A stretch of DNA of 64,000 nucleotides from an uncultured Leptospirales bacterium (GTDB lineage: Bacteria > Spirochaetota > UBA4802 > UBA5550), in contig CAZEPS010000002.1 in NCBI GenBank assembly GCA_964514165.1, forward strand, positions 873 through 64,872, written 5' to 3'. Shown here piece after piece: positions 8,585-47,526 of this stretch. A program made the translations under genes and the position numbers. The notes beneath the pieces are model-generated. The model made no database searches, had not been told where the DNA came from, and saw only the letters and a list, made by a program, of their open reading frames with translations. Positions within the stretch are counted from its first letter, which is position 1, and each line of letters begins with the position of its first letter.

Positions 8585-8589
8585 AAAGC

Positions 8590-10524: not shown

Positions 10525-10527
10525 ACT

Positions 10528-13566: not shown

Positions 13567-13575
13567 GGATCCCTG

Positions 13576-15102: not shown

Positions 15103-15155
15103 TAAGGCAAACGCCTGATTGGGTTGCCGGCATTCCAGGCCCCGAGCGTTATGTG

Positions 15156-15983: not shown

Positions 15984-16027
15984 AATTTTCTCCAGTAGTG
16001 TATTTAAGAGACGCTGTGTCATTTATA

Positions 16028-27216: not shown

Positions 27217-27912
27217 TTATTTATAGTGCTGTTTCGCTTCTTCTTTTCGCTGTATCTCAGCGTCCTGTTTCCCCTTCATTATTTTCAAGAGGAGGTCCTG
27301 TATCTCCTGGGGGAGGGTGGTAACCTCTTTACCGGTTGTCAGGCCGTAGTAGTAAACCTTTGCCCCTTTCTCGAGGAGCATGGCGTTGCTCACCGCCTTC
27401 TCCAGGGTGATGCCGAAGGTCAGGGCCCCGTGGTTTTTCAGGAGGTACGCGTTCATCCTGCTGTCGATGCTGGCGGTGATGTTCTCGATGAGCTGGGGGC
27501 TCCCGGAAAGGCCGTAGGGTACTATTTCGATTTTTGTGCCGATTTCGATGGAGACCTCGTCGAACAGGGCCGGAACAGGTTCGCTGATACAGGCGAACAC
27601 GCTGGCGAATATCTGGTGGGTGTGGACAATGGCGTTCACATCCTTCCTGTTTTTGTAGCATGATATGTGCATGGCGGTCTCGACCGAGGGTTTGAGGCAG
27701 TTGTCCTCCACCGGCTTGAGGTCGAAGTCTACCACGCAGATGTCGCTGTTTTTCATGATGGTGTAATCCACCTGGGAAGGGGTCACAGCCACGGTCTCCT
27801 CCCCTTCTATTTTCATGGAGACATTACCCCCCCTGGCGGTGAGGTAGCCCTCGTTGTATAGTTTCATGGCGGCGTCAAGTACCGCCTGCCGGGCTTCGTC
27901 GTATTTTCCCAT
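27217..27912 (-). CDS. class II aldolase/adducin family protein (fuculose/ribulose-5-phosphate aldolase-like)
   Basis: Metal-binding His cluster (HTHQ) and family-typical length of 231 aa. Confidence 0.8.
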   Translation of the reverse strand: MGKYDEARQAVLDAAMKLYNEGYLTARGGNVSMKIEGEETVAVTPSQVDYTIMKNSDICVVDFDLKPVEDNCLKPSVETAMHISCYKNRKDVNAIVHTHQIFASVFACISEPVPALFDEVSIEIGTKIEIVPYGLSGSPQLIENITASIDSRMNAYLLKNHGALTFGITLEKAVSNAMLLEKGAKVYYYGLTTGKEVTTLPQEIQDLLLKIMKGKQDAEIQRKEEAKQHYK

Positions 27913-29525
27913 TATTCTTCTCCTGCATGATTGAGGGTGTGAAAGAGTTTCCGGTTCTGCTTGTAGAGCTTCGTGAATATGTCGAAGTTCCGGTTGTAGA
28001 CATCACGGTTCTTCTGGTTCGGAAAGTAGACCTTTTCGACGGGGATGAGGTCCTTCGCCTGTTCGAACGTGTCGCACAGCCCCAGGCCCACGGAGCACAC
28101 GATGGCCGCACCGATGGTTCCCACATTCCGGGTGTTCGGGACCGTCTCCATGACCCGGCCGGTGACGTCCGCCATAATCTGGCACCAGACCTCGGACTTT
28201 GCCCCGCCCCCCACGTAGCGGATTGTCTCCTGTTTCGGTATCTTCTTCTCCATGGCCTCGAGCATCCACCGCTTGTGGTACGCAACCCCCTCGAGCACGG
28301 ATCGGATAAGCTGGCGCTTGCCGGTGTTCAGGCCGATGTTGAAGAAGATTCCCCGGGCGTAAGGGTCTTCCCGGGGGGAGCGGTTCCCGTGGAGCCAGGG
28401 GGTAAAAATGACGCCGCCGGAACCGGCCGGTGTATTCTTAATTCCCTCGTTCAGAAAATCGTAGAGGCTCTCGTACTCGTCGTTCTTGTCGCAGATGTGC
28501 TGCGCCTCGAGATAGAGGCCGATTTCGTCCAGGGCAAGGTGGTCCCGCACCCACTGCAGGCAGGCCCCGGAGGTCTCCTGCTCGGCCGCGTAGTTGTACC
28601 GTTCCGGTATGGCGCTCATGATAGAGGCGATGAAGTTCGTTATGTCAACCATCCGCCTGTCGACATTGGCCACGGCCCAGCCTGATGTCCCGACGTAGAA
28701 GTGTGTGTCGTAAAGCTCCAGGCAGCCTGATCCGATGGAGGCCATGGACATGTCGCCGCCGCCGCCGAACACCGGTATTCCCTCCACCAGCCCCATTTCA
28801 TCGGCGGCGGCGGGGGTGAGGTGCCCCACGATGTCCGTGGATTTCACCACCGGGGGCAGGTGCTCCATGTTCACGTCGAACATGCCGCAGAGCCCCCTGT
28901 GCCAGCCGAGTTTCCCAGGCCGGGTGTCGTATATGAATGTCAGGTTCGCCGAATCGTAGGTCATGCCGTACTCCCCGGTGCACCGGAGGATCAGGTAGTC
29001 CTTCACGTCGAGCCACCGGTAGGTTTTTTCGAAGATCTCCGGCTCGTTGTCCCGCACCCAGTGGTACTTCCAGAGCGGGTCCTTGGCCGTGGCGGCCAGG
29101 CCCCCGGTGTAGTAGAGGGACTTCAGGGTCTTGTAGGCGTTCCACTTTTCGATTCGCAGGAGGCCGGTGTAGAGGTACCGGGCTATCTGGTCAGTGGACC
29201 GCCCGTCCATGTAGTTCATCGGGTTCCGGAGGATCCGCCCCTTTTCGTCAACGTGGACCGAGCTCTGCATCTGGGCGGAAAAGGCCATCCCCCGGATATC
29301 TTTCGGGGAGATGTCGTTACGTTCCATCAGGATCCTGGTGGCCCCGCACACGGCGCCCCACCATTCGTCCGCGTTCTGCTCGACCCCGCCGTTTTCCAGG
29401 GTGTAGATCGGGTACTCTATCAGGTAAGAGTCGATCAGTTCGATCTGGTCGGTGATACGGTAGAGGCAGGATTTGTTGCCGGTGGTGCCCACGTCGTGGG
29501 CCAGGACGTGCACTGTTTCACTCAT
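27912..29525 (-). CDS. FGGY-family carbohydrate kinase
   Basis: 537 aa. N-terminal HDVGTTGNK (FGGY N-motif) and C-terminal GGGA motif. It overlaps the aldolase start by 1 bp. Confidence 0.85.
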   Translation of the reverse strand: MSETVHVLAHDVGTTGNKSCLYRITDQIELIDSYLIEYPIYTLENGGVEQNADEWWGAVCGATRILMERNDISPKDIRGMAFSAQMQSSVHVDEKGRILRNPMNYMDGRSTDQIARYLYTGLLRIEKWNAYKTLKSLYYTGGLAATAKDPLWKYHWVRDNEPEIFEKTYRWLDVKDYLILRCTGEYGMTYDSANLTFIYDTRPGKLGWHRGLCGMFDVNMEHLPPVVKSTDIVGHLTPAAADEMGLVEGIPVFGGGGDMSMASIGSGCLELYDTHFYVGTSGWAVANVDRRMVDITNFIASIMSAIPERYNYAAEQETSGACLQWVRDHLALDEIGLYLEAQHICDKNDEYESLYDFLNEGIKNTPAGSGGVIFTPWLHGNRSPREDPYARGIFFNIGLNTGKRQLIRSVLEGVAYHKRWMLEAMEKKIPKQETIRYVGGGAKSEVWCQIMADVTGRVMETVPNTRNVGTIGAAIVCSVGLGLCDTFEQAKDLIPVEKVYFPNQKNRDVYNRNFDIFTKLYKQNRKLFHTLNHAGEE

Positions 29526-29680: not shown

Positions 29681-31396
29681 TCATTTTTTCGAAGTTCCCT
29701 GTTTTTTGTCACGCCGGTACTCCGAAGGGGTCATCTTCATGACCCGGTGGAACGACCGGTTGAAGGTGGCAAGGCTCTCAAATCCGGACGAAAAGGCGAT
29801 GTCGATTATCGGGTCCCCGGTGTCGGCGAGCTTGCGGGAGGCGGATTCTACCCTGAGCCGGTTGATGTAGTCGTTGATCTTCATCCCGGTGCAGGTCTTG
29901 AAGTAGCGGCTCAGGGAGTCGGGATGGAGGTTCAGCATGGCGGCAAGCCCCTCCCGGGCGATGTCGCTGGTGAAATTATTCTCGATGTAGAGGACCGCTT
30001 TCTGGAGCTTTTTTTCAATGACGGGGGAAATCTTTACCCTTTCCCGACGGCTCATCCGGTTGATCATCCGCTGGTAGAGGAACGCATTTTCGAGAAGGAG
30101 GGCGGTCTGCCTGACAAAGACCGAAATGCGCCCGGCATCGGTTTCCGTATATGAACTCTCTTCAGCGGTCCGCTCAAGGTAACAGATTCCGATTATCTCC
30201 TTGTGGAGGGGAATCGGCAGTGCCAGGATGTTTCGGCCGATATCCGCGCCTCCGTAGCACTCGCCGTTCTTCTCTTCTTCCGTGTAGATAAGGTATTCTT
30301 TTCGGCGCCAGGACTCCTCAACGATGGGAAAGTAGTATGACACGATGTTCACCGACGGGGACCGGGCCGAACCCATCATCTCAAGCTGGCCTTTGTCATT
30401 ATAAAGAAAAATGTATGATGATTCGGCCCGCGCCAGCCGCAGGATCTTCTGGGCCGCGGTGTTTACGAGGTCCGTGATGTGGGATACGACGCTCAGGTCC
30501 CGTCCCAGTTTGTCAAGGCTGGTCAGTTCTGTTGAAACAGCGGACGAGTCCCGGGCCGCGTCACCGGCCTTTGCTTCATTACCGGTCTTAACCGCCTCGT
30601 CGTAGAGTTCCCTGGCCATTTCACTGAAGAAGAGTTCCCTGGTCCGCTCCGATATCTTGTCCTCCAGGATGATGTTCAGTTCGTCAACCTCATCCTTCAA
30701 TTTAACCAGCTGGTTAAGGAGGGCCACGGACATTGTTATGATGATCAGCAGGTAGGCGTATTCCAGGATGTACATGAAGGTGTAGACACCGGCGCCCACC
30801 AGGGCGTCGTTGACGCAGGAGATGAAGAATATGAACATGGATATGACCATGGGGCGGGCGTGCCTCCCGTCTTCATCAAGGCAGTAGGTCGTAAGGTTAA
30901 AGAGAATATAGATCGACGTGACCAGGGTCGCCCCGTTCTGGAGGTGGTAAAGAATGCCCGGGCTTCCTTCGTAGTAACGGATGGTGCCGAAGAGGGGGCC
31001 GGTGAGCACCTTGGTGCTTGGAATTGCCGGGGTGAGGGCGGCCGGCCCCTCCAGGGTGAGGCCGAGGACAATGAACAGCGCGAAGGACACGGTCACCAGG
31101 ATTTCCCACCGCCGTGAACTCCGCCCCGTGTAGGACCGCACGAACCAGGCAACCGACACGATGAAGAGGGCGATGCCCGCGAATTGCAGCCGCTGCCAGA
31201 ATATCCCCTCAGCAAGATTCTTGGCGTTGTAGAGGCCGGCGCAGAAGATGTCGTAGAGGAATATGGTGAAGCAGGTCACGGCAAAGAGGAGGTTTACCGT
31301 CTCGCGCCTGTTTTTCAGGTAGACGATGAAATAGTAGACGCTCACGTAGAGGCATATTGCCGCCACCATGGCGGCCGGTACGGCGTTCGCGGTCAT
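29681..31396 (-). CDS. AraC-family regulator with N-terminal 7TM (7TMR-DISM-like) sensor and GAF domain
   Basis: Seven hydrophobic helices, a central GAF-like region, and a C-terminal AraC HTH (SGFESLATFNRSFHRVMKMTPSEYRR). Confidence 0.8.
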   Translation of the reverse strand: MTANAVPAAMVAAICLYVSVYYFIVYLKNRRETVNLLFAVTCFTIFLYDIFCAGLYNAKNLAEGIFWQRLQFAGIALFIVSVAWFVRSYTGRSSRRWEILVTVSFALFIVLGLTLEGPAALTPAIPSTKVLTGPLFGTIRYYEGSPGILYHLQNGATLVTSIYILFNLTTYCLDEDGRHARPMVISMFIFFISCVNDALVGAGVYTFMYILEYAYLLIIITMSVALLNQLVKLKDEVDELNIILEDKISERTRELFFSEMARELYDEAVKTGNEAKAGDAARDSSAVSTELTSLDKLGRDLSVVSHITDLVNTAAQKILRLARAESSYIFLYNDKGQLEMMGSARSPSVNIVSYYFPIVEESWRRKEYLIYTEEEKNGECYGGADIGRNILALPIPLHKEIIGICYLERTAEESSYTETDAGRISVFVRQTALLLENAFLYQRMINRMSRRERVKISPVIEKKLQKAVLYIENNFTSDIAREGLAAMLNLHPDSLSRYFKTCTGMKINDYINRLRVESASRKLADTGDPIIDIAFSSGFESLATFNRSFHRVMKMTPSEYRRDKKQGTSKK

Positions 31397-32006: not shown

Positions 32007-32795
32007 ATGACAGTGAAACTCGCATTCCTCGGAACCGGCACCTGCAGCGGGACCGGCCGCAACCCGGCATCCAGCGCCCTCTCCGACGGGAACGAGGTGG
32101 TTCTCATAGACTGCGGGGGCGGGTGCTACCACCAGCTGGCGCGGCTCGGCAGGAAGGACTTTCCCCACCGCTCGGTGAACCTCGTGGCGCTGACCCACTA
32201 CCACGTGGACCACACGGCCGGGCTCCTCGATTTCTTCTGGGGTGAGATGTGGGACACCCGGGGGCAGCGGACGGCCCCCCTTGCCGTTGTCGGCCCACCG
32301 GGGCTGCGTGAGTTCTTTGACACCCGGCTCTTTCCTTTCATCGGGGACCATGAGATCCCCTTTGAATACTGCCTGGCGGAAATCGGGCCCGGTGAAACAT
32401 ACAGCCACACCTTTTGCGACATCACCTCGTACCACCTGCTTCACGGGCCGAAATCAACCGGATACCTCTTTGCCGTGCCTGGCGCGAAAACCGGTTTTAC
32501 CGGTGATACCGGCTACTGCGATAACCTGTTGAAACTCGCGTCCGATTCGGACGCCCTGGTCATGGAATGGGCCATCAGGGGCAGCGACGACCATGAGCGG
32601 CACATCAACGGGGATGACATGTCGCGCCTCGCGGCCGACGAAGTACTGCCGGAAAGGGTTTACGTGACTCACGTGTACCCTGAAACCGGTCTTTCGTTCA
32701 GTGAACAGGTTGCCGGGATGAAACGGCTTCTCGGCCCCGAGGCCCGCAGGTTTCATTTCCCGGTCGACCTGGAGGTTGTTGAGGTTGTTCCGTAG
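32007..32795 (+). CDS. MBL-fold metallo-hydrolase (RNase Z / PhnP-like)
   Basis: HYHVDH motif and the beta-lactamase fold pattern. Confidence 0.75.
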   Translation: MTVKLAFLGTGTCSGTGRNPASSALSDGNEVVLIDCGGGCYHQLARLGRKDFPHRSVNLVALTHYHVDHTAGLLDFFWGEMWDTRGQRTAPLAVVGPPGLREFFDTRLFPFIGDHEIPFEYCLAEIGPGETYSHTFCDITSYHLLHGPKSTGYLFAVPGAKTGFTGDTGYCDNLLKLASDSDALVMEWAIRGSDDHERHINGDDMSRLAADEVLPERVYVTHVYPETGLSFSEQVAGMKRLLGPEARRFHFPVDLEVVEVVP

Positions 32796-33016
32796 AGGTC
32801 GCCCGGCTTCCGGAAATCCACCGGGATCCTTTTGATCGAATCCTCATTGCCCAGTCCCGCCATGAACAGGCCCCTCACTTAACAAACGACCGGGTGATTA
32901 TGTCCTATGAACTAAAAACTGTCTGGTAATAAGAATCATCCTGAACTCTACTTTATAAAGAAGAAATACGAAAACTTTCTTTACATCGTTGGCGCCGGTT
33001 TTAAGAATTGCCCTCA

Positions 33017-33049
33017 GGGAACCTCTTATGTAATTTCTGGATGTTCCCC
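33017..33049 (+). repeat. solo family-A-type hairpin GGGAACCTCTTATGTAATTTCTGGATGTTCCC upstream of adk
   Basis: Same GGGAACCTCT..GTTCCC stem as hairpin 1 of copy A4. The core and hairpin 2 are absent. Confidence 0.5.
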
Positions 33050-33074
33050 GTATATTGAATCACGAGGTGGATTT

Positions 33075-33764
33075 ATGAATATTCTTATTTTTGGTCCAAA
33101 CGGAAGCGGCAAAGGGACCCAGGGGGCCGTGGTACAGAAAAAATTCAACATAACCCACGTAGAGTCCGGGGTCATTTTCAGGGAGAACATCAAGGGCGGA
33201 ACAGAGCTCGGGAAAAGGGCGAAGGAGTACATCGACCGGGGAGACCTGGTCCCGGACGAAATCACCATTCCCATGATCCTTGACCGGCTTCAGCGGGACG
33301 ATTGTAAAAACGGCTGGCTCCTGGACGGCTTTCCCCGGAACGTTGAGCAGGCGAAGGCACTGAACGAGGCCCTTGAAAAAGAGGGGATCAGCCTCGATTA
33401 CATAATCGAGATTATCCTTGACCGTGAGATCGCGAAACAGCGGATCATGGGGCGGCGCCTGTGCGAAAATGACAACAATCACCCGAACAACGTCTTCATA
33501 GACGCCATCAAGCCGGACGAGAAGGACGGCGAAATGGTATGCCGGGTCTGCGGCGGAAAGCTCTCAACCAGGGCCGACGACCAGGACGAGGAGGCGATCA
33601 ACAAGCGCCATGGCATTTACTATGACGACAAAACCGGCACCATTGCCGCGGTAAATTTCTTCAAGGAACTTTCCATAGAGAGGGGAGGCAAACCGAAGAT
33701 CATCGAGGTCAACGGGAAGCCCGGGGTCAAGGAGGTCAGCGAGGACCTCATGTCCCGGATTTAG
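33075..33764 (+). CDS. adk: adenylate kinase (long-LID, Zn-ribbon type)
   Basis: P-loop GPNGSGKGTQ, LLDGFPR, and a LID with CRVCGG..; 229 aa with an insertion in the LID. Confidence 0.9.
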   Translation: MNILIFGPNGSGKGTQGAVVQKKFNITHVESGVIFRENIKGGTELGKRAKEYIDRGDLVPDEITIPMILDRLQRDDCKNGWLLDGFPRNVEQAKALNEALEKEGISLDYIIEIILDREIAKQRIMGRRLCENDNNHPNNVFIDAIKPDEKDGEMVCRVCGGKLSTRADDQDEEAINKRHGIYYDDKTGTIAAVNFFKELSIERGGKPKIIEVNGKPGVKEVSEDLMSRI

Positions 33765-33774
33765 AGAATACTAT

Positions 33775-33826
33775 CCGGTCCGCCCGGCCTCTCTCTGTCG
33801 GGCGGACCGGGATATTCCGGCGTTTT
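33775..33826 (+). terminator. putative terminator after adk (12-bp GC stem CCGGTCCGCCCG / CGGGCGGACCGG)
   Basis: Perfect 12-bp stem with a 12-nt loop. The U-tract is weak and displaced (CGTTTTAAT). Confidence 0.4.
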
Positions 33827-33912
33827 AATAAGGCTTGACACCCCTGTCGATGGTACATACACTGTCAGGGGTATTCGTGAAAAAAAAACATATAAAACAG
33901 GTCCTGAAAAAC

Positions 33913-34326
33913 ATGGAGAAGAAATTCAAAACCGCATTTATCCTGATGATGATTCCGGTCGCGATAAATATCGCCGGAACAATACTCTGCGCCCTTTACC
34001 TGGGGCGGGCGGAATTCAAGGGTTATCTGGCCGGTACGCTCCTGAGCCTCTTCTTCTCAGTGTTCTGGCTCGTCATGGCCCGGAAGATCACCCTGTCAAA
34101 CATCATGGTGCTCTTTACCGTGTCCCTCGGTTCGTTTCCGGTGAAGATAGTCCTCTTCGCCGTTTTCGCCCTGGGGGGTCTCTACGTATTAAAGATGGAC
34201 CAGATCTACTTCGGCATCTCGTTCCTTCTCGGGACCATCCTCAGCCTGGTCATAGAGGTCTGGTTTATCCTGGCGGTAAACAAACTGAAAATCAACAGCA
34301 GGATTACGAAAAAGAATCCGGAATAG
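33913..34326 (+). CDS. hypothetical membrane protein (4 TM)
   Basis: Start placed at MEKKFK. Four hydrophobic helices. The stop lies 6 bp before the histidine kinase start. Confidence 0.55.
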   Translation: MEKKFKTAFILMMIPVAINIAGTILCALYLGRAEFKGYLAGTLLSLFFSVFWLVMARKITLSNIMVLFTVSLGSFPVKIVLFAVFALGGLYVLKMDQIYFGISFLLGTILSLVIEVWFILAVNKLKINSRITKKNPE

Positions 34327-34332
34327 GTCACC

Positions 34333-35952
34333 ATGGATTTAAAGGATCTGAACTACCTCTCGAAAGATGAACTCATAGGCATCATCACCGACCTTTCAAA
34401 AAAGTATTCCCTTGAAAATAAAGAAATACTACCGATAAACGTTGACTACCGGAGCCTCCTGGAGGCGACTTCAGACATTATTTTCGTCATAGACAAGAAT
34501 GAAAACCTGGTCTACATAAACTCCAAGTGGAAAACCCTGTTCCCGTCAATCAACCAGGAGCCGGCCGGCGAGCATTACACGAAATACCTTCCCGACATAG
34601 AGAAGGAGCGGGCCGCTTACGTTTTCTCGTCCGTCATCAAGGACGGGGCCGTGTTCGAAAACGAGATGATGAAGACCTACGATGAAACGGGACGGCCCTG
34701 GTACTTTCTCGCGAGCTTCTCCCCGATAAAATCGGAAGACGGCACCAACAAGGGCCTCATCGGCATCATGAAAAACATCACCGAGCGGCACCTCATTGAA
34801 AAGAAGCTGAAGGAGAACAGCAGGATCCTCGAGGAGAAGGTCAAGGAGCTGGTGAGGCAGTCCGACGAGATACGGGGCCTCAGGGAATTCAGCGACGACA
34901 TAATAAACAACGCCCCCATCGGCATTTTCATGATGGACCCCTCCGGCATAATGCTGAGCGAAAACCCGGCGCTGAAGATTATCATGGGCCACGGGAGCGA
35001 GTCACGCATTGGGGTCAACCTGCTCAATTATTCAGGCTTCATCAACGCAGGACTCGACAGGGCCTTCGCAAAGGTCCTCAATGAGAAGGTATCGGTCAAA
35101 GTCAACAATGCCCCCTACGTTCCCATCGTGGGTGACCGGGAGCTCATCATCGACGTTATCATGACCCCCATATTCGAAATCCCGGGAAAGGTCGGGAAGG
35201 TCCTTGTCATGGTGGAGGACAACACCGAACAGGCCCGGACCACTGTCAGGGCCCAGCGGGCCGAACGGCTCTCTTCCCTCGGGTTTCTCGCCTCCGGGGT
35301 CGCCTCGGAACTGACCGGTTATATCAACAAAATGGCAATGGACCTGAACTTCGTTCGGAATAACATCGAGGAAGGAAACCCGGCCGTGGATTACGTCGAG
35401 TCACTGAAAGACGAGGTGGACCGTATCAAGAACATCTCGGAGCAGCTCCTGAGCCTCTCCATCACCGGTGACGCGGACAAGGAGCTCTGCGACGTGAACA
35501 AGGCGGTGAAGGGGCATTCCGTTGAGGTTATGACCAACCGGCTCCAGAAAGAGGGCTTCATCGTTGACGTGAAGCTCTCCTCGGAAAACCCGCTGGTGCG
35601 GGCGACCCCGAACCAGCTCCAGCAGATCGTAATTCAGTTTCTCGAAAACGCCGAGGAGGCCATGACGGAGAAAGGAAAAATCGGGATCACCGTGGAGACA
35701 CTCAATGTCTCTGACGGAACCTTCGCCGTCATTACCGTTTCGGACGACGGTATCGGCATCCCGAAGGAGAATGTAAAACGCATATTCCAGCCATTCTACA
35801 CCACGAAAGGGAAAAACGCGACCGGCCTTGGCCTCATGATCGTGTCCACCATCGTGGAGAACCTGGGGGGCACCATCGGCGTCAGGAGCGCCCCGGGAAA
35901 GGGTACCCAGATTAAGATAGCAATCCCGGCTGTCACGCAGCAGGGGTCATGA
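34333..35952 (+). CDS. PAS-domain sensor histidine kinase (cytoplasmic)
   Basis: Two PAS-like segments, a HisKA-like region (RAERLSSLGFLASGVASELTGYI) and HATPase_c G-boxes (DDGIGIP, GLGLMIVSTIVENLGGTI). No TM segments. Confidence 0.85.
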   Translation: MDLKDLNYLSKDELIGIITDLSKKYSLENKEILPINVDYRSLLEATSDIIFVIDKNENLVYINSKWKTLFPSINQEPAGEHYTKYLPDIEKERAAYVFSSVIKDGAVFENEMMKTYDETGRPWYFLASFSPIKSEDGTNKGLIGIMKNITERHLIEKKLKENSRILEEKVKELVRQSDEIRGLREFSDDIINNAPIGIFMMDPSGIMLSENPALKIIMGHGSESRIGVNLLNYSGFINAGLDRAFAKVLNEKVSVKVNNAPYVPIVGDRELIIDVIMTPIFEIPGKVGKVLVMVEDNTEQARTTVRAQRAERLSSLGFLASGVASELTGYINKMAMDLNFVRNNIEEGNPAVDYVESLKDEVDRIKNISEQLLSLSITGDADKELCDVNKAVKGHSVEVMTNRLQKEGFIVDVKLSSENPLVRATPNQLQQIVIQFLENAEEAMTEKGKIGITVETLNVSDGTFAVITVSDDGIGIPKENVKRIFQPFYTTKGKNATGLGLMIVSTIVENLGGTIGVRSAPGKGTQIKIAIPAVTQQGS

Positions 35953-35962
35953 GGATATTTCG

Positions 35963-37444
35963 ATGATTACCGTTCCACAGGACATCAAGAATTTTTTCCA
36001 CGACGAAGGCTACATTATCGTCACCCAGGGTGACCAGAAGATGGACCTGTTCAGCGACGAGATGAAATCCGCTGTATTGAACGGGGCCCTGGCAGGGGCG
36101 ACGGCCGCGGAAGCGGACGACCATGTGGTGACCGAACGGGCCGAAAAGGTTCCTGACAAGAGCGGCGCCCAGAGCCCCCTGGCCGGGGAGTACGACATCC
36201 CCACCATCGTCGAGTACCTCAACTGGCACATGAACCGTATATCCGAGAACGTCATCGGCCGGGACGACATCATCCGCCAGGCCATGTTCGCAATCATCAC
36301 CGGTGAGCACATGCTTCTCCTCTCCCGCACCGGCATGGCCAAGTCATACCTGGCGAATTATATCTTCAACACCTTCGAGGGTGCGAGGATATTCTCCCAG
36401 CAGGCGAGCAAGGACCAGACCCCGGACAACTATTTCGGCCCCTACAACATCGACGAGTTCAAAAAGGGCCGGATTCGCCACAACATCAAGGGTTCCATCA
36501 TCGAGGCGAACCTGGTGTTCCTGGACGAGTTCTTCGACGCCAGCGACGTGGTCCTCCGGTCCCTCCTTACGGTGCTGAACGAGAGGAAATTCGTCAACGG
36601 CTCGGAGCGGATAGACGTTCCTATTCACACCGCCATCGCCACGGCGAATTACATGAGGATGAACGAGGTCACCGAGGCGGTCCTCGACCGGTTTACCTAC
36701 AAGTCGATCATACCGGAAGACCAGGACGTGTACAAACAGCTTCTCATCGACCATACCTACGCCTTCAGCGGCGGGGTCCCCATCGACCCGGTAAAGAAGC
36801 TTTTCTTTAACCAGGTGATCTTCCTTAACAGCATCATCAAGAACCGCAACAAAGATTTCAAAATCGAGGTGCCGGATTACGTCTACTTCATGAAGAACGT
36901 CATCGTGAACAAGTTCGTCGGCGACATGCGGAAGAGCGATTACAACTTCTTCATAAGCCCCCGGAAGCAGGCCAAGGTATCCGACTTCCTCCGGGCGTCC
37001 GCCATAGTGAACAACCGGTTCGAGGTGAACGAGGACGACCTGAAGGAACTCTACCTGTCACTCTGCACCCTGAACAGCTACGTGTCGATAAAGGCCAAGG
37101 ACAAGTCCGAAAAAGACGTCTTTCTCGACACCTACCACCAGACCATGATCCACTTCAAGAACTCCGGGGCCATTCCCCAGATTGAGTTTTTACTGAAAGT
37201 GCGGAGGGTGCTCCAGGAGATCCGGGAAGATCCTGAGAAGCGGGACATGATCCTGGCGCGGAAGAATTTCCTTGAAAGCATCATCGACGTGCTCAGGAAA
37301 ATCTTCCCATCGAAAAAGAGAGAGGACGACGAGAAGCTCACGGTTGACAGGCTGAAGACCGGCGTCGTTGACCTGAGCCCCGCGGTTGAAGAGGTACGGG
37401 AATTGAAAGAAGGAGTATTGAAGGACTACCGGGATATTTACTGA
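35963..37444 (+). CDS. MoxR-family AAA+ ATPase
   Basis: MoxR-type Walker A LLLSRTGMAKS (the A-K-S signature), Walker B VFLDEF, sensor ATAN. It starts 10 bp after the kinase. Confidence 0.75.
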   Translation: MITVPQDIKNFFHDEGYIIVTQGDQKMDLFSDEMKSAVLNGALAGATAAEADDHVVTERAEKVPDKSGAQSPLAGEYDIPTIVEYLNWHMNRISENVIGRDDIIRQAMFAIITGEHMLLLSRTGMAKSYLANYIFNTFEGARIFSQQASKDQTPDNYFGPYNIDEFKKGRIRHNIKGSIIEANLVFLDEFFDASDVVLRSLLTVLNERKFVNGSERIDVPIHTAIATANYMRMNEVTEAVLDRFTYKSIIPEDQDVYKQLLIDHTYAFSGGVPIDPVKKLFFNQVIFLNSIIKNRNKDFKIEVPDYVYFMKNVIVNKFVGDMRKSDYNFFISPRKQAKVSDFLRASAIVNNRFEVNEDDLKELYLSLCTLNSYVSIKAKDKSEKDVFLDTYHQTMIHFKNSGAIPQIEFLLKVRRVLQEIREDPEKRDMILARKNFLESIIDVLRKIFPSKKREDDEKLTVDRLKTGVVDLSPAVEEVRELKEGVLKDYRDIY

Positions 37445-37452
37445 GGAGCGCC

Positions 37453-39147
37453 ATGCAGTTTGTCCAGCGGGATGAAGGCCCGCAACAGAAGGATTTTTTC
37501 GAATACTGGGACTCACTCGGTTTTTTCGACAGCTTCCAGCATTTTCTCCCCCCCCAGTTTTTTGTCCTCTTCCAGATAGCCAGGGTAATTTTTTCCGAGG
37601 AGAAAACCACCGAGGCCTACGAGGCCATCGAGACCATATCGAAAGACGAACCGATTTTCAAGCCCGACCGCAGCGAGAGCATCCAGGTTAACCGGATGGA
37701 GAAGGTTGTCCCGGTAAGCGACCGGATGGAGATCGAAACCTTCCGCACCATACAGGATCTGAAGAAGGCCCTCCCCCGGGAACTGGCCCAGGACGAAGAG
37801 GTCTTCGCGGCCAAACTCTTCACCAAGACCCTCATGGTGCAGAAATTTTTCGAGTCAGAGGCGGACAGCTTCAAGCCCATATCCACATCCCGGGACAAGA
37901 AGGGGAAAGAGGCGAACCGCTTCGAGCAGAAGTTCTACATCCTCCTTGACCGGTCCAAGTCGATGGAGATGAAGATGCGCTCCTTTTACGGCAAGTGCCT
38001 GGTGGCTGAATTTCTCCGCCGAAAGATTCGCTCCAGGGCGCGGCTCTACTACCGCCCCTTTGACTCGAAACCGGGAAATCTCTCCCGCATCGAAAAGAAG
38101 GAGGACTTCCCCGGGCTCATCGAGCGGATTCTCCTTACCGCCACCGGGGGGACCAGCACCAATATCCAGGCGGCCGTGTTCCAGGCCATCAGCGACATCC
38201 GTTACGACAAGGAGATGACGAAATCCGAGATCCTGGTGGTTACCGACGGCATCAGCAAGATAGACCGGGACGAGTTGCGGGTGAAACTCGGCGACATCAG
38301 GCTGAACATACTGAAAATAGGCAGTGACGTGCCGGAACCCGACTTCTACGATATCGAGGCCTACTTCAAGCACGAGAAGATCCCCTATGATCCGAACACC
38401 ATGGACATCATGAACGTCAAGCGGAAGCTCGCCCGGGCGGCGGGGGGCGATGGTGACGCCCACCTGACCGCCACTGAGAAGCGGACCCTCAGGTTCATCA
38501 GCGACGCCTCGGAGAAAATCTTCAAGGACCTTAAAGACGTGGCTGACAACTATATCGAAATCGACGACATGGACTGCTCAGACATTTACGGGGTGGACGA
38601 TGAGACCCTTGCCTACATCAAGGCCACGGTGATGGGTTTCGACCTGGTGAACATCGGGGAGCTGGAAATTCCGGACAAGGAGAAGCTCTACAAGCACGTG
38701 AATTTCATGGCCCAGTATGTGCGCATGCTCATGGAAAACGGCAACGAAGAGAACCAGGTGCTCCGGTTCGCGGAGGAACAGCTCTCCCGGATCAAGCAGA
38801 AGATGCTGAAGGACCCGTACCTTCTCTTCACCTTTCTCCAGGTGAAAGAGCTGAACGAGGACCGGAAGATGATGAAGCTCGCGAAAAAAGAGGCCCGCCA
38901 GGCCCTGAAGAACATGAAGCTCGAGAACCGGAAGCTCTCGGTCAAGGAGATGCGGGAAGGGCAGCTCCTCCTCACCATGGACGTGGGGGAGGGGAGCATG
39001 GGGCAGTTCTTCCGCTTTCTCCTGGTCAAGCTCTTCGATCTGTTGAAGACGGTCATAACCGCTCCGGCGAAACTTTTTCAGAAGAAGGAGAAGCCGCCGG
39101 AAGACGATGAAGATGAAAAGATGGACGGAAATAAAATCAGCGCGTGA
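37453..39147 (+). CDS. VWA (von Willebrand factor A) domain protein, MoxR partner, with C-terminal coiled-coil
   Basis: MIDAS-like DRSKSM .. TGGTSTN .. VVTDG. It starts 8 bp after the MoxR gene. The C-terminus is charged and coiled-coil. Confidence 0.75.
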   Translation: MQFVQRDEGPQQKDFFEYWDSLGFFDSFQHFLPPQFFVLFQIARVIFSEEKTTEAYEAIETISKDEPIFKPDRSESIQVNRMEKVVPVSDRMEIETFRTIQDLKKALPRELAQDEEVFAAKLFTKTLMVQKFFESEADSFKPISTSRDKKGKEANRFEQKFYILLDRSKSMEMKMRSFYGKCLVAEFLRRKIRSRARLYYRPFDSKPGNLSRIEKKEDFPGLIERILLTATGGTSTNIQAAVFQAISDIRYDKEMTKSEILVVTDGISKIDRDELRVKLGDIRLNILKIGSDVPEPDFYDIEAYFKHEKIPYDPNTMDIMNVKRKLARAAGGDGDAHLTATEKRTLRFISDASEKIFKDLKDVADNYIEIDDMDCSDIYGVDDETLAYIKATVMGFDLVNIGELEIPDKEKLYKHVNFMAQYVRMLMENGNEENQVLRFAEEQLSRIKQKMLKDPYLLFTFLQVKELNEDRKMMKLAKKEARQALKNMKLENRKLSVKEMREGQLLLTMDVGEGSMGQFFRFLLVKLFDLLKTVITAPAKLFQKKEKPPEDDEDEKMDGNKISA

Positions 39148-39177
39148 GCCCGTCATTTGCCCTGATGGCCGGTTATC

Positions 39178-40146
39178 CTACAGCTTTTCCTTCTCGTACC
39201 AGTTAATCGTTTCCAGCATTATCTCGATGTTGCCCCTCGTTGGCTGCCAACCGAGGTCGCTTTTCGCGGCGCCGCAGTCCATGATGAGGTTGTTCAGGAG
39301 GAGCGTGAGGTGCTCCCGGTTGAGATAGTTTATTTTGAATGGCTTCAGGAGTATGGACAAAAACCTGGTGTATCCCGGTGTCAGCCTCTTAATCGTAAAG
39401 CTGAGTTCCGCGCGCTCCTGTATCGCATTCACCACCTCCTCGTGGGTCGGCACGTTGTCCGATCCGAGGTTGTAGATTTTATCTTTGGACGCGCCGGATT
39501 TCAGGGCCCGGGCGATTGCGTCCGCCGCGTCGTCCGGGTGGATCATCTGGAACCGGTTCTCGCCGGAGCCGGCGATGTACATCCGGTTTGCCTCCTCCAT
39601 GCCCATGGCCATGAGGAGGGTGATGAGTATGATCGGGTTGTCGGTTCCGGGGCCAACGACGAGTGCCGGCCTGAACACGGTAATCTCCATGTCAGCGGTC
39701 TTCTTGAACTTTTCCAGGTACTTCTCGATCTTCTTCTTGTCCCTGCCGTAGCCGGTGACCGGCCGCAGCTTGTCCCCCGGGCGGGAGAGATCTTTCCTGG
39801 TTTTTCCGTAAACCTCGTACGACGAGATGAAGAAGAAGCGCTTTACCCCTGCCGTCTTCGCCGCGTCCAGGAGCTTCTTCGTGCCCCGGACGTTGTTTTT
39901 CCTCATGTATGATCTCCCCTTGAGCCCGGGGCGGTGCACGTCCATAAGGTGGATGACCGTGTCGGCCCCGGCGCAGGCCTTCTTCAAGACGCCCTCGTCG
40001 AGGCAGGTCCCCGTCAGGAATTCAGCGCCCGGGGGCGTCTTCCCCGGCCTCGCGTCGTCAAGACAGCGGAGCTTTCCCCCTTCTTCCGCGAGCCGTAACG
40101 CGATCTTTTCACCGAGAAAACTGCTGCTGCCTGTTATGAGTATCAT
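39178..40146 (-). CDS. NAD-dependent epimerase/dehydratase family protein
   Basis: ILITGSSSFLG Rossmann motif and YxxxK (YGRDK). Confidence 0.8.
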   Translation of the reverse strand: MILITGSSSFLGEKIALRLAEEGGKLRCLDDARPGKTPPGAEFLTGTCLDEGVLKKACAGADTVIHLMDVHRPGLKGRSYMRKNNVRGTKKLLDAAKTAGVKRFFFISSYEVYGKTRKDLSRPGDKLRPVTGYGRDKKKIEKYLEKFKKTADMEITVFRPALVVGPGTDNPIILITLLMAMGMEEANRMYIAGSGENRFQMIHPDDAADAIARALKSGASKDKIYNLGSDNVPTHEEVVNAIQERAELSFTIKRLTPGYTRFLSILLKPFKINYLNREHLTLLLNNLIMDCGAAKSDLGWQPTRGNIEIMLETINWYEKEKL

Positions 40147-40180
40147 GGGGGACCTCTTTCAGTAACGAAATATTGATGAA

Positions 40181-40400
40181 CCACAGAGACGCAGAGGCAC
40201 AGAGATATAAAGAAAAATTTTAAAAAAAACTGTCATCGTGAGGAGTGAAAAGGCGAAGCTATCTCATATAAAAGTAATCGATAATTATCGGTTCTTATGA
40301 AAATCAATGGTTTATGAAACGTTATAGAGAGATTGCTTCGCAAGCTCGCAATGACATAAATAAAACAACAATCATTCTCAGTGTCTCTGTGCCTCCGTGG
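40181..40400. mobile_element. MITE-like element (220 bp), same TIR family as 31426..31892
   Basis: Left TIR CCACAGAGACGCAGAGGCACAGAGA; right end TCTCAGTGTCTCTGTGCCTCCGTGG. The subterminal sequences are related to the larger copy. Internal inverted repeat GCGAAGCTATCTC / GAGAGATTGCTTCGC. No clear TSD. Confidence 0.6.
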
Positions 40401-42033: not shown

Positions 42034-44133
42034 TTATTCCCTTTCAATGAGTTTGAACATGGATATGAGCTTCGAGAGTGTGCCGGTTATCTCCTGGAGG
42101 GCTGCAGAGAGGTTTTCGAGCTCCACCGAGTTTCTCGCGTAGTCGTTGGTCAGGGTTTCGGTCTCGACGATGGTCGCCTCCATCTCGGCAGTACTGTCCG
42201 CCTGGTCCTTTGTCTGCGTGAATATTTTCTGGGACATCTCGCTCAGATTTTCAATGGAACTGCGTATCTCCTCGGAGCCGAGGGCCTGCTTGTCCCGCTC
42301 TTCCGCAATCTTGTCTATCATCGATACGATGTGGTACACGTTGTGTGTGAAGAAGGTGAGGAGCCCCTTGATCTCGTTCACGCTGTCGACCCCCCGGGAG
42401 ATATTGTCCCTTGTCTCGAGCACCAGTTTTTCGATCTGCTTCACCTCGTGCGTTGAGCGCTCTGCCAGCTTGGAGATTTCGTCGGCGACGACCGCGAACC
42501 CCTGGCCGTGCTCCCCGGCGCGCGCCGCCTCTATGGAGGCGTTCAGGGCAAGGAGGTTGGTCTGGTCGGCGATTTCGTTTATCACCAGGGTCACCTCCCG
42601 GATGCGGTCGGAGCTTTTCTGGATTTTCTGCATGTCGTCAACCATGGAGGTGAGCTGCTCCTCCCCCTTCTGGACCCTGATCGAGAGGGTGTTGCCCTCT
42701 TCCCGCACGGCGGATATCTTCCTGCCAATCTCCTCGATTGACGCGACAAATGATTCCAGGGCGGAGAAGACCTGTTCCACCGTGGCCGAGGTTTCCTCGA
42801 CGCTCTGCATGACAACCTTTCCTGAAGAGGTAAGGGCCCTGATGTTCTCTACCGCCTTCTCCATGGCGTCTTTCTGTATGCGGGCCCCGTCGCCCACGCT
42901 CCCGGAGATGACGTTCAGGAACCGGGAGAGCTCACGGGTCTTGTCGATCGTTTCCCGAAAGGTGGCCAGTACCCGCTCAAGGTTTTTCACGGTGCTGATT
43001 ATCTCGTAGAGGATGTTCCGGAGCTCGTCCTGGGTGTCGATGGCGAGCCGCCTGGTGAGGTCCCCCTGTGACACGTATTTCAGTGTTTCGATAGCGTGGT
43101 TGATGGGACGTGCCGTGTTCGAGGCCGTGAAGTATATGACGAAAAAGGCGATTATAGTCGAAAAGGACATGACCGCCACCATGCGCATGGCGATGCCGGT
43201 GAGATACCCCTCGTCGATGCCGCCGGTCCCCCGGGCGAGGAGCCCCGATATCTCCTGGGAGGCGAACATGCCGATGATGATTACCGTGTAGACGAACAGG
43301 GGGACCAGGAGGACCATGAGCCGGCGACGCATGGAGACCCGCATTATCCGCCTGTGGTTTATGAGGCTTCGGGAAATCTTCCACACCGCGAAATTCATGT
43401 CCTTGATGACCCGGGAGAAGACCCGTTCCGCGGTCAGGTAGGCGATGACCCCGGACACGAACCCGGAAAAGGTGATGATGAACACCATGTTCACGATCTG
43501 GAACGTGGTGGGCCGGGGAGGCGGAAGCAAACCGGGTGTCACGGCAACGTAGACCGCCAGGAGTGCGCCGATGCCGAACCGGCAGTACATGAAAAAGCCG
43601 TGGAGTATCGGCAGGTTGTGGGCCCGGATGTAGGCCCTTGTCAGGGCCTTTTCGCTGAATGTTCCTTTCCGGTAGAAACGAAGGAACTTTCCTATCGGGG
43701 CAAAGAGGATTTCGTTCGTCGGAATAGCGAAGGAGGTGGCCGCGAGAACGACCCACCAGGCGTGTTCAAATGCCAGAGAGCGGCTCTGGGCCTCGTTGAG
43801 TCCTATGAAGAGGGCGAGCACCACCGTGGCAAAGGAGGCCCCGGCGACCGCCCCGATGAGTTCCGTGAGAAAAAACCGGGCCTTTACGTGCCACCGGAAA
43901 AACGAATCGCTGATAAAATAATTGTCCGTTTTTGCTGAATTCCGGCTTTCCTGTTCTTCACCGGGCTCCCGGAGATCGTCATCGGCGAAATGTGCGAATT
44001 CGGACGGTTTCTCCCTGTCTTCGCCTGTTTCCCCTTCGGTGAGGACGAAGTCCTCCCCGGATTCGATCTCGTCCAGGGAGACGTCACCGTTTTTCCTGTA
44101 TTCATCCATTATATTGTCTTCGACCCTGTTCAT
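42034..44133 (-). CDS. methyl-accepting chemotaxis protein
   Basis: Two TM segments, HAMP, and the highly conserved MCP signalling domain ([31 protein letters not shown]). Confidence 0.9.
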
Positions 44134-44607: not shown

Positions 44608-46599
44608 ATGCCGTTGAAGAAATTATTCATCATCGGGACCCTTCTCTCCCTGGCGCTTCTGATCGGCCAGGGCCCGGCCCCTGCCCGGGAAAAGAATGCC
44701 ATTTATTACAGTAAACAGGGGTGGGAGCATTACAAAAGGGGTGACGTGTACCGGGCCATCTTCAGCTTCAAGAACGCCCTTCACAAAAACCCCCGGTACA
44801 AGGACGCCCTCATCGGCCTCGGCAAGTCCTATCTCGAGGTGGAGGCCTACGACCAGTCCTACGATCTCTTCAAAAGGGCGCTGAAGCTCGACGACCGTTC
44901 CAGTGAGGCCATGGTCGGCATCGGGAAGACCCTCACCGGCATGGGGAACTACCGGGGGGCCCTGGAGTATTTTAACAAAGCGGTTGAGATTACCGAGGAA
45001 GACCTGGACGCGAAATACGGCATCGCCAACCTCTACCGGATGATGGGGAAGATCATCTGGGCCAAACGGAACCTGGAGAACATCCTCAGGGTGAACCCGT
45101 ACCACTTCGACTCACTCCTCCTCATGGCGGACATCAAGAGCGACGAGAAGCGTTTCAACGAGGCCCGGGACTATATCGACAAGGCCATCGAGTCTGATCC
45201 CGAGTCGCCCCGGGGCTACTCCAAGTACGGCGAGATCATGTTCCGGAAATACCTGAAGACCGAAAACGGCGACGACCTGGACGAGGCGGTGGAGGCCCTG
45301 AAGAACGCCCTCTCCATTCAGCCGAAGCATTACCGGGCCAACCGCATCATGGGGTACATCTCCCTCGAGCTGAAAGACTATGAGCGGGCAGCGGAATACT
45401 TTCAAAACTCCCTCCACGAGAACACCGGGGTCTACGGGCTCTACTCCCTGGCCCACGCCCAGGACATGGCGGGAAACACTGCCGGGGCCCTGAAGAATTT
45501 CCTTGACGCCTACAAGAAGGCCTCGGCCGATTCAGTGCTCCAGAGCCGCCTCGAGGACTTCCTGGTCTTCCGGGACTTCCCCATGGGGCACCCGGTCAGG
45601 GTCATGCTGAACAACGAGCACCAGAGCCTTGCCGAGAGCAGGGCCAGGAAACATTTGGCCGACCAGGTCATCATGCACCTGCGCCGCGCCGTTCTCCTGA
45701 ACCCGATGAACCGGGAGGCGAGGGAAAGCCTCATGGACTACTGGCGGGTCCAGGGCTACTACCGGTTCTACGTCGACGAGCTGAAAGAGCTGTTGCGCCT
45801 TTACCCGGGGAACGAGTACCGGGACCGCCTCAACGTTGCCGTCATCAAGCGGCGGGACAGGCTCTACCACCGGGAGGGGTATTCCGCCGAGGATATCCCC
45901 CGGGACGTCCCCCGGGTCCTGGTCATGGACTTCGACACCGGAGGCGAGATCATCCCCCACCCGGACGCCGGGGCCGTGTTCGCGAGCAGTCTATCTTTCG
46001 TTCTCGGCCAGTTCGGGCGGATGAGCCCGGTGGGAATGCGCAAGCGGAACGAAACGGCCCGGGGCCTCAGGACCGGCATGGACCACCTGGAAGGGAGCCT
46101 TGAGAGGGTTTCCGCCATGGTTGACGCAGGCGAGATCCAGCCCGTCGATTACGTCGTGTACGGGACCTGTCACGAGGGGGGCAGCCACATCTCAGTGCAC
46201 TGCAGCCTCCTCGACTTTCACAAGGGGTTCATCATCGGGGAGTTCGACCTCTCCGAATCGGGAAAGGAGGCCCTTCCCCGGCTTGCCCTCCGGTCCGCAA
46301 AGCGGATATACGACATGATGCCCTTCAGGGGGAGTATCCTGAAACTGAAGGAGAAGGGGATCGTGGTGAACATGGGGCTCTTTGACGGGATTGGGCTCGA
46401 TGACAAGCTCGTAATCTACAAGTTCAAATCGGCCTTTCCGGCCGGGAGCGGGGATAAACGGAAGATTGTTTTCACGGTCAGGGAGGCGGACACCCTGGTC
46501 TCCTACGCGGAACCCCCCCGGGAGGCTGAACTCGACCTTGTCGATTCCTCTGACACGGTATTTCCCCTTGAAAAGCGGAGGGCGAAGCTTATCAAGTAG
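44608..46599 (+). CDS. tetratricopeptide repeat protein (secreted)
   Basis: Signal peptide, then multiple TPR units in the N-terminal half; 663 aa. Confidence 0.75.
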   Translation: MPLKKLFIIGTLLSLALLIGQGPAPAREKNAIYYSKQGWEHYKRGDVYRAIFSFKNALHKNPRYKDALIGLGKSYLEVEAYDQSYDLFKRALKLDDRSSEAMVGIGKTLTGMGNYRGALEYFNKAVEITEEDLDAKYGIANLYRMMGKIIWAKRNLENILRVNPYHFDSLLLMADIKSDEKRFNEARDYIDKAIESDPESPRGYSKYGEIMFRKYLKTENGDDLDEAVEALKNALSIQPKHYRANRIMGYISLELKDYERAAEYFQNSLHENTGVYGLYSLAHAQDMAGNTAGALKNFLDAYKKASADSVLQSRLEDFLVFRDFPMGHPVRVMLNNEHQSLAESRARKHLADQVIMHLRRAVLLNPMNREARESLMDYWRVQGYYRFYVDELKELLRLYPGNEYRDRLNVAVIKRRDRLYHREGYSAEDIPRDVPRVLVMDFDTGGEIIPHPDAGAVFASSLSFVLGQFGRMSPVGMRKRNETARGLRTGMDHLEGSLERVSAMVDAGEIQPVDYVVYGTCHEGGSHISVHCSLLDFHKGFIIGEFDLSESGKEALPRLALRSAKRIYDMMPFRGSILKLKEKGIVVNMGLFDGIGLDDKLVIYKFKSAFPAGSGDKRKIVFTVREADTLVSYAEPPREAELDLVDSSDTVFPLEKRRAKLIK

Positions 46600-46602
46600 C
46601 CT

Positions 46603-47526
46603 TTACCCTGATTTTTCCTCAAAGAGCCTCAGGGTTTCCTTCGCCTTGATGTCGTCGCCCATGGCGTCGTATACCCGGTAGAGGCGGTAGAGGGTGTCGT
46701 AGTTGTCCGGGTTCAGCTCCAGAGCCTTCTTTAAACATTTGACGGATCTCTCCAGGTAATACTCCCTGGTGCCGGGAAACCTCCCGGTGAAGTAGACATC
46801 GCCGAGGTAGATGTATGCCCGCTCGAAATCGGGCCTAAGGAAGGCGAGGCGTTCCATGACCCTGGCCGCCGCGGTGAAATTGTTATCGGTGTAGTAGATA
46901 GCGTAAAGCCGAAAGTAGGGGTCGGTCATGGCCGGGCTTATTTCCAGAATCTCCCGGTAGAGCTTCTCTGCCCGTTTGACCTCGCCGGCCTGTTCAGCCG
47001 CCCGGGCCTCGCGGAAAAGGGGGCCGCCGGTTTTTTTGCCGGCCTTCAGGCTTATCCCCATGTGTTCTTCAGCCTTGTCTGCCATGCCCTTCCTGATATA
47101 CAAGCGGACCAGGTTCATGTTCCCCTTCACGTGGTCCGGATCAGCCGCGACCGCCCGGCTGAAGTGATCAAAGGCCCGTTCCAGGCGTAAGTAGTACTCG
47201 TAGAGATCTCCGAGACGGTTATGGATGTCCGGCTGGTTTTCGTTTATCGAAACCGATGCTTCAAGGTATTCGAGCTCTTTCTGTTTTTCGTTTTTCACAC
47301 GGTGAATATCAGCCAGGATGTTCGCGGCCTCCCAGAGTTTCGGGTTCTGTTCCAATGCCTTCTGAAGGCTGAAAAGGGCGAATTCGTACATCTCGGCGTC
47401 ATACTGGATCCGCCCCTTCCTGAGATAGTACTCCCAGGTGTGTTTTCCGTAAACCGGTCCTGCGCCGAAAAAAATCACGATGGCGAGGGCGAGAATATTG
47501 ATTTTTATTATTGACAGAAACGGCAT
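46603..47526 (-). CDS. tetratricopeptide repeat protein
   Basis: N-terminal signal/TM followed by TPR units throughout; 307 aa. Confidence 0.75.
   Translation of the reverse strand: MPFLSIIKINILALAIVIFFGAGPVYGKHTWEYYLRKGRIQYDAEMYEFALFSLQKALEQNPKLWEAANILADIHRVKNEKQKELEYLEASVSINENQPDIHNRLGDLYEYYLRLERAFDHFSRAVAADPDHVKGNMNLVRLYIRKGMADKAEEHMGISLKAGKKTGGPLFREARAAEQAGEVKRAEKLYREILEISPAMTDPYFRLYAIYYTDNNFTAAARVMERLAFLRPDFERAYIYLGDVYFTGRFPGTREYYLERSVKCLKKALELNPDNYDTLYRLYRVYDAMGDDIKAKETLRLFEEKSG

Follow-up and report, generated by a model that had tools for sequence, protein, structure and literature searches.

A conserved spirochaete operon encoding a predicted pseudo-histidine kinase next to a RavA-clade MoxR ATPase and a VWA protein

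The 64,000-nucleotide stretch analyzed here (the window; contig CAZEPS010000002.1 of assembly GCA_964514165.1, from an uncultured Leptospirales bacterium) carries a tightly packed, apparently self-contained operon of four genes, g1 to g4, which lie on one strand with gaps of 6 bp (g1-g2), 10 bp (g2-g3) and 8 bp (g3-g4). They encode a small membrane protein (g1), a cytoplasmic protein with two PAS domains and the architecture of a histidine kinase (HK; g2), a MoxR-type AAA+ ATPase (g3) and a protein with a von Willebrand factor A (VWA) domain and a metal ion-dependent adhesion site (MIDAS; g4). A preliminary description of the stretch had delimited the same four open reading frames (ORFs), and its coordinates, the four membrane segments of the g1 product, the cytoplasmic placement and two PAS regions of g2, the A-K-S type of the g3 Walker A motif and the VWA/MIDAS assignment of g4 are all borne out below. 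Its view of g2 as an orphan sensor kinase fails: from its sequence, g2 is best classified as a conserved pseudo-histidine kinase that keeps a conserved ATP-binding pocket.

The g2 product (539 residues) has the domain order PAS-PAS-DHp-HATPase_c, in which DHp denotes the dimerization and histidine phosphotransfer region and HATPase_c the catalytic and ATP-binding (CA) domain, and is without a transmembrane segment (Pfam, NCBIfam and hydropathy). Its best family matches are AtoS, ZraS and PnpS, and a conservation profile indicates that PAS domain 2 is better kept than PAS domain 1. The preliminary description had credited g2 with complete HisKA and HATPase motifs, and the second half of that statement holds: the HATPase_c match is strong (Table 1), and all 78 distinct orthologs have N439, D471, G473, G475, P487, F488, T491, K492, G498 and G500. 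The first half does not, as Pfam HisKA gave no match to g2. Thus, of the motifs that define a HisKA-type sensor kinase, g2 retains the N, G1, F and G2 boxes of the CA domain and lacks a proper H-box.

In alignments to PDB structures, Ser325 of the degenerate H-box GVASELTGY lines up with the acceptor His of ZraS (GVAHEIRNPL), CckA and ThkA. Across the 78 orthologs this position is held by Ser (41), Tyr (25), Leu (5), Glu (4), Phe (1), Arg (1) or Thr (1), and in no case by His. No His occurs anywhere in the DHp of the window protein, and residues 295-390 contain no conserved His column across the orthologs; the sole conserved His nearby, H395, sits at the start of the CA domain, where ZraS has a His at the aligned position. 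The H+4 and H+5 positions, which bifunctional kinases use for phosphatase activity, are variable. The Glu next to the site of the lost His persists in 71 of 78 orthologs. Past the H-box, the DHp carries an almost invariant stretch, NKMxMDLNF, in keeping with a conserved protein interface. Because the acceptor His has been lost, g2 is predicted to be incapable of His-Asp phosphotransfer, and this incapacity would in turn explain why no response regulator accompanies it. Searches of the window by tblastn with the CheY, OmpR and NtrC receivers, which have limited sensitivity, returned no receiver domain, as the preliminary description had also reported, and no response regulator gene is present in the operon or its flanks. 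A pseudo-histidine kinase would need no such partner.

The g3 product (493 residues) matched Pfam bpMoxR with an E-value of 2.5e-33 (115 bits, cutoff 27), as well as AAA_5 (55 bits) and AAA_lid_8 (25.7 bits), both over their Pfam cutoffs. The Walker A (SRTGMAKS, K127/S128) and Walker B (D188/E189) motifs are invariant in 32 g3 homologs. RavA is the only PDB sequence match of g3 (E = 4e-21), and profile alignment with hhalign of the g3 family to Escherichia coli RavA gave a probability of 98.9% (E = 1e-17, 31% identity over 252 columns) that covers the AAA+ module only. E. coli RavA also matches PF20265 and PF12592, the LARA and RavA C-terminal domains, whereas g3 matches neither, and g3 scores 93 bits on the NCBIfam RavA model, the cutoff of which is 681. 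On these profile matches, g3 is classified as a RavA-clade MoxR AAA+ ATPase without the LARA and RavA C-terminal domains, and so is not RavA proper.

The g4 product (564 residues) consists of a conserved N-terminal motif, N-terminal helices, a VWA domain in the middle of the protein and a helical C-terminal region. Pfam VWA models matched under cutoff (VWA_CoxE, 16.7 bits versus 26.4). An AlphaFold model built from 35 homologs shows the VWA region with a predicted local distance difference test (pLDDT) score of about 75-89, and Foldseek matched this model to many solved VWA domains (E = 1e-5). The MIDAS residues D166-x-S168-x-S170, T236 and D265 are invariant, and the model and these residues indicate that g4 is a VWA-fold protein with an intact MIDAS. 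The tail that the preliminary description called a long coiled coil stands as a helical region of ~180 residues, modeled with moderate confidence to about residue 450 and with mostly low confidence beyond it (pLDDT <50 at residues 461-473, 487-518 and 544-564).

The g1 product (137 residues) is the sole protein of the operon with hydrophobic segments, of which hydropathy analysis finds four; a single-sequence AlphaFold model likewise contains four long helices (pLDDT 68). Residues G37, W52, F100, F104, E115 and W117 are invariant among its orthologs. The window protein has no Pfam match and scores 23.1 bits (cutoff 40) on NCBIfam NF053722, the Cg1360 family of ATP-synthase-associated proteins, over model positions 13-121 of 128. 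Among 15 diverse orthologs, 11 matched NF053722 (best E = 9e-8) and seven matched Pfam ATP-synt_I (PF03899; best E = 1e-4). An hhalign comparison of the g1 family with the ORF in the AtpI position of Ignavibacteria was marginal (E = 0.055). Thus, g1 resembles AtpI and Cg1360, which are likewise small four-helix membrane proteins, at the superfamily level, and its scores under the curated cutoffs place it outside the AtpI/Cg1360 family itself. The ATG at 33913 is the likely g1 start, because the orthologs open with the same MEKKFK-like N-terminus.

The operon is delimited on both sides. The adenylate kinase gene adk ends at 33764, and a strong hairpin with a short U run follows its stop codon; the hairpin folds at -35.5 kcal/mol (z = -4.6), a value that none of 200 shuffled sequences reached, and a terminator scan also marks 33807-33820. 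It looks like a terminator that sets adk apart from the operon. The best sigma-70-like match within 33000-40300 (TTGACA-17-TACACT, 10 of 12 positions) lies between the hairpin and g1. Downstream, a gene for an NAD-dependent epimerase runs toward the operon, its stop codon lying 30 bp past that of g4. The hairpin and promoter-like site upstream and the convergent epimerase downstream indicate a separate transcription unit that leaves no space for a fifth gene, and hence no response regulator immediately outside g1 to g4. Judging from this layout, the four genes are probably carried on one transcript.

Table 1. Coordinates of the genes and predicted features of the operon (window positions; residue numbers are those of the encoded proteins).
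Feature	Position	Strand	Basis or remark
Strong hairpin, then short U run	33766..33817	+	3' of adk stop codon
Sigma-70-like promoter, TTGACA-17-TACACT	33835..33863	+	Consensus match only
g1	33913-34326	+	ORF
g2	34333-35952	+	ORF
g2, PAS domain 1 (residues 38-153)	34444..34791	+	Pfam PAS_4, PAS, PAS_9
g2, PAS domain 2 (residues ~190-300)	34900..35232	+	Second PAS stretch; ThkA and AtoS alignments begin at residues 179-181
g2, Ser325 codon (phospho-acceptor His position, degenerate H-box GVASELTGY)	35305..35307	+	
g2, HATPase_c (CA) domain; N, G1, F and G2 boxes intact	35608..35931	+	Pfam E = 1.4e-25
g3	35963-37444	+	ORF
g3, Walker A SRTGMAKS	36323-36346	+	
g4	37453-39147	+	ORF
g4, VWA domain (residues 159-370)	37927-38562	+	AlphaFold model
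g4, MIDAS DxSxS	37948-37962	+	

We determined how widely this arrangement is shared. In a large protein database, 229 MoxR relatives were found among 8,000 candidates scored; the 120 relatives listed are 61-90% identical, and every informative source name among them is of Spirochaetota, two names ("bacterium" and "Chrysiogenales bacterium") being uninformative. Scanning a single genome for each GTDB species gave 93 matches, of which 80, from Spirochaetota or unnamed metagenome-assembled genomes, were kept. The g2-g3-g4 order is kept in essentially all of these 80 species-level loci for which the contig is long enough, and g1 was recovered in 76 of 85 loci. The gene order of the operon thus recurs in ~75 species-level Spirochaetota genomes, which is far beyond chance. 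Median spacers across the loci are 20, 14 and 12 bp, and median identities to the window proteins are 40% (g1), 50% (g2), 64% (g3) and 50% (g4), with the MoxR proteins 53-74% identical across the clade. No cultured representative is found among the carriers recovered. OW818666.1, OY760686.1 and CAXXHB010000003.1 are complete genomes with the operon. ORFs of 674-694 and 1029-1041 residues that were considered as fusion candidates are artefacts of ORF extension across stop codons.

The flanks are usually syntenic as well, with adk upstream and the epimerase gene downstream. This shows vertical inheritance; by the same token, synteny taken alone exaggerates how closely the genes are linked in function. 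In ~24 of the 80 GTDB loci, adk is not on the same strand upstream, and the epimerase gene is displaced in some; g2-g3-g4 is intact in these loci. The operon is inherited vertically and probably has a housekeeping role. A divergent subclade (loci L078, L079 and L082) encodes a short g2 of 361 residues that matches only residues ~180-535 of the window protein, has one PAS domain (PAS domain 1 is absent) and carries Glu in place of the acceptor His; as elsewhere, its gene is followed by those for MoxR and VWA. In the upstream position of g1, these loci have a gene for a ComFB-domain protein (L078, 5973-6635; L079, 5737-6399; L082, 5694-6353), a family of cyclic di-nucleoside monophosphate (c-di-NMP) receptors (PMC12448109). 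The replacement of g1 by ComFB fits a core machine with exchangeable signaling inputs.

Outside the spirochaetes, only part of the operon is found. When clustered at 50% identity, the spirochaete MoxR family forms essentially one full-length cluster, and its next relatives are 31-46% identical, the largest group of these being from Ignavibacteria and Kapabacteria. In most loci examined in that group, a VWA gene comes after the MoxR gene and encodes a protein with the N-terminal motif and MIDAS of g4; neither a pseudokinase nor g1 is present in these loci, which contain only the MoxR-VWA pair. Since Ignavibacteria, Kapabacteria and other bacteria have the pair but neither of the other two genes, the pair is old, and the spirochaete lineage later gained the pseudokinase and g1. 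Distant MoxR relatives (P0250, P0253, P0331 and others) were scanned for sensor domains in their N-terminal extensions; only AAA+ domains were seen.

Several of these distant loci have other neighbors. In an Ignavibacteria genome (L087, 7001-15305, GCA_016720835.1), the MoxR-VWA pair shares its strand with an F-type atp operon and lies directly upstream of it; the order of that operon is AtpZ, a 149-residue ORF, and subunits a, c, b, delta, alpha and gamma. In L137 the pair and an atp operon are divergent, and in L142 they are 7 kb apart. Overall, atp genes lie within 10 kb of the pair in only three of ~40 adequately flanked relatives, and two of those three (L137 and L142) share lineage-specific neighbors; this proximity is a weak hint and not evidence, since most relatives are without the link. 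In E. coli K-12 (L170, NC_000913.3, 3922000-3933000), ravA-viaA lies ~6 kb from atpI, across oriC, which is probably a coincidence. A calcineurin-like phosphoesterase gene separates the MoxR and VWA genes in L142 (11292-13082) and L137 (11345-12541), similar gaps occur in L135 and L151, and L142 has an additional inserted 202-residue protein with no Pfam match; the inserts in this Ignavibacteria-related lineage may represent a different third component. In L162 and L165 (~4800-16100), a MoxR-VWA subfamily of ~40% identity is divergent from an acetyl-CoA synthetase gene and lies near genuine Cache-PAS-HisKA kinases that retain the HisKA domain.

The closest characterized counterpart of g3 and g4 is the RavA-ViaA system of E. 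coli. In both, an ATPase gene is directly followed by a VWA gene, the AAA+ modules are homologous and the Walker A motif is of the xxGxAKS type. ViaA and g4 both have an intact MIDAS and, before the VWA domain, a weakly similar LPxELA motif; alignment of the g4 family with ViaA by hhalign sets MIDAS on MIDAS and LPRELA on LPPELA, with a profile similarity that is weak and not significant (E = 0.12). The VWA domain is C-terminal in ViaA, unlike its mid-protein position in g4, and neither a pseudokinase nor an AtpI-like gene accompanies RavA-ViaA.

For g2, two other systems provide models of control. NifL, with the order PAS-PAS-H-GHKL, controls the AAA+ protein NifA, encoded adjacently, by direct contact without phosphotransfer. 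Like g2, NifL combines this domain order with an intact GHKL nucleotide domain, and its gene is directly upstream of an AAA+ ATPase gene; the target of NifL is a sigma-54 activator, whereas the putative target of g2 is a MoxR-clade ATPase. DivL, a Caulobacter pseudokinase with Tyr in place of His, signals by protein-protein contact and controls CckA. The acceptor His is thus replaced in both DivL and g2, with Tyr in 25 and Ser in 41 of the 78 g2 orthologs. However, DivL is membrane-anchored and acts on CckA through DivK, whereas g2 neighbors a MoxR-VWA pair and has a fully conserved CA domain.

We consider that the operon is best read as encoding a RavA/ViaA-like remodeler that is coupled to a pseudokinase and controlled by direct protein contact, and we put the probability of this reading at about one half. 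The core is the MoxR ATPase with its MIDAS-containing VWA adaptor; pairs of this type spend ATP on the remodeling or maturation of a specific client complex. In the spirochaete lineage, the pair gained a cytoplasmic PAS-PAS-DHp-CA protein related to kinases of the AtoS/ZraS type. This pseudokinase may serve as the sensing subunit for a ligand, a nucleotide or both, and, by analogy with NifL-NifA and DivL-CckA, could switch the MoxR-VWA machine on or off by stoichiometric direct contact. The g1 protein may anchor the machine at the membrane or bring a membrane client to it; as to the client, the F-type ATP synthase or another energy-transducing membrane complex is a weak lead. The preliminary description had proposed a signal-dependent activation module for an unknown target. 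That remains a fair summary of this model, in which control would be exerted between proteins rather than through phosphotransfer.

Several observations weigh against this model. That g2 binds or regulates g3 or g4 is inferred, and no g1-g2 or g2-g3 fusion proteins were found among the loci. The NifL analogy concerns architecture only: NifA belongs to a different AAA+ clade than g3, and the NifL model TIGR02938, which matches the g2 CA domain with E = 3e-26, does so at 92 bits against a cutoff of 242, so that g2 is not a member of the NifL family. With respect to the client, the AtpI assignment of g1 falls under curated thresholds despite the near-full-length NF053722 match and the PF03899 matches of many orthologs, and an hhalign comparison of the g1 family with E. 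coli AtpI was negative (E = 0.24). Moreover, there are no atp genes in the window, and the annotated flanks of the orthologous loci contain none, so that g1, unlike AtpI, does not stand at the head of an atp operon. Finally, Ser, Thr or Tyr occupies the former His position of g2 in 67 of the 78 orthologs, and a possibly phosphomimetic Glu in four, which would permit autophosphorylation on a hydroxyl group.

This last point leads to the principal rival explanation, in which g2 is still an active kinase that acts on hydroxyls, either autophosphorylating the replacement Ser or Tyr or phosphorylating MoxR, VWA or another protein on Ser, Thr or Tyr, so that the MoxR-VWA pair would be under phosphorylation control. 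There are precedents among relatives of this fold: the HK-like PDK/BCK kinases and SpoIIAB phosphorylate Ser, Thr or Tyr, and DivL Tyr550 reportedly autophosphorylates in vitro. The invariance of the ATP-binding and catalytic boxes, the retention of the Glu beside the former His and the residues found at that position would all agree with such an activity. However, Leu, Phe or Arg holds the position in seven of the 78 orthologs, so a phosphorylation site there is not universal; no kinase substrate signature was identified; and an intact pocket is equally expected of a nucleotide sensor such as the GHKL domain of NifL. We regard a hydroxyl kinase as unlikely, while ranking it ahead of the other rivals.

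A more specific form of the pseudokinase-coupled remodeler, which we consider quite unlikely, has the operon encode a machine, gated by a signal, that assembles an energy-transducing membrane complex or controls its quality; the F-type ATP synthase rotor is a possible example. Here the client would be held by the AtpI-like g1 and remodeled by the RavA-like ATPase together with the MIDAS-VWA adaptor, and the His-less PAS kinase, with its PAS domains and intact nucleotide pocket, would monitor the energy or redox state of the cell and license the ATPase by contact. The hints are the AtpI-like character of g1, the position of adk directly upstream in most genomes and the distant MoxR-VWA relatives beside an atp operon in two Ignavibacteria lineages; RavA-ViaA itself acts on respiratory complexes (PMC3893208). 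A literature search returned nothing relevant on Cg1360 in Corynebacterium, on AtpI with MoxR or on a pseudokinase with an AAA+ protein. If true, this variant would represent a new wiring of a two-component-derived sensor to an AAA+ chaperone.

The four genes could also be co-transcribed and yet functionally unrelated, their linkage being no more than the inherited synteny of one lineage. All loci do come from one phylum-level lineage, and the flanks (adk, epimerase, S26 peptidase and TPR genes) are often syntenic too, so conservation by itself does not prove coupling. On the other hand, the spacers are very short, the order is invariant where the flanks differ, and the g2-g3-g4 triad persists in the divergent subclade in which g1 is replaced. 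We therefore judge simple co-inheritance to be improbable.

The preliminary description had also linked the operon to nucleoside triphosphate (NTP)-dependent conflict systems. In the MoxR-vWA-beta-propeller ternary conflict systems, a beta-propeller is fused to the vWA protein and effector domains are present (Kaur et al. 2020, PMC7159879), and the top Pfam match of g3, bpMoxR, is the model named after them. E. coli RavA, however, outscores g3 on this model (191 versus 115 bits), so the match marks the RavA clade rather than conflict systems. Furthermore, g4 has no fused beta-propeller, the operon has no effector domain, no PADLOC defense model matched apart from a negligible ZorA match (E = 0.0015), and the locus is single-copy and syntenic in ~75 species at the MoxR identities given above, unlike mobile, fast-evolving and patchily distributed defense islands. 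An anti-phage or conflict role of this type is thus very improbable. The same applies to a functional orphan sensor HK with its response regulator encoded elsewhere in the genome, which would account for the overall HK architecture and the AtoS, ZraS and PnpS matches and founders on the absence of the acceptor His from all 78 orthologs, the lack of a conserved DHp His or a HisKA match and the variable H+4 and H+5 positions.

Several other genes of the window lie around the operon. A gene for a protein of the metallo-beta-lactamase fold lies just upstream of adk (32007-32795, +); the precomputed Pfam matches of its ortholog in L004 (261 residues) are Anti-Pycsar_Apyc1 and Lactamase_B. Further upstream, 29681-31396 (-) encodes a 571-residue protein with an N-terminal 7TMR-DISM/HisKA_7TM membrane sensor region and a C-terminal AraC-type helix-turn-helix domain, a one-component membrane regulator whose gene adjoins a gene for an FGGY sugar kinase (27912-29525). 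Downstream of the operon are genes for a methyl-accepting chemotaxis protein (42034-44133, -) and tRNA-Phe(GAA) (47555-47629). Several relatives also share the synteny between the operon and two large tetratricopeptide repeat (TPR) proteins (44608-46599 and 46603-47526).

The g2 orthologs (n = 78) add a well-sampled family to the few known pseudo-histidine kinases, and genome annotation should neither label proteins of the g2 type as sensor histidine kinases nor count them as orphan two-component genes. MoxR-VWA pairs are widespread, and for few of them are clients and regulation known; here, such a pair is fixed together with a putative sensor across a whole spirochaete lineage. The operon would thus be a natural system in which to examine the switching of an AAA+ remodeler in response to a signal.

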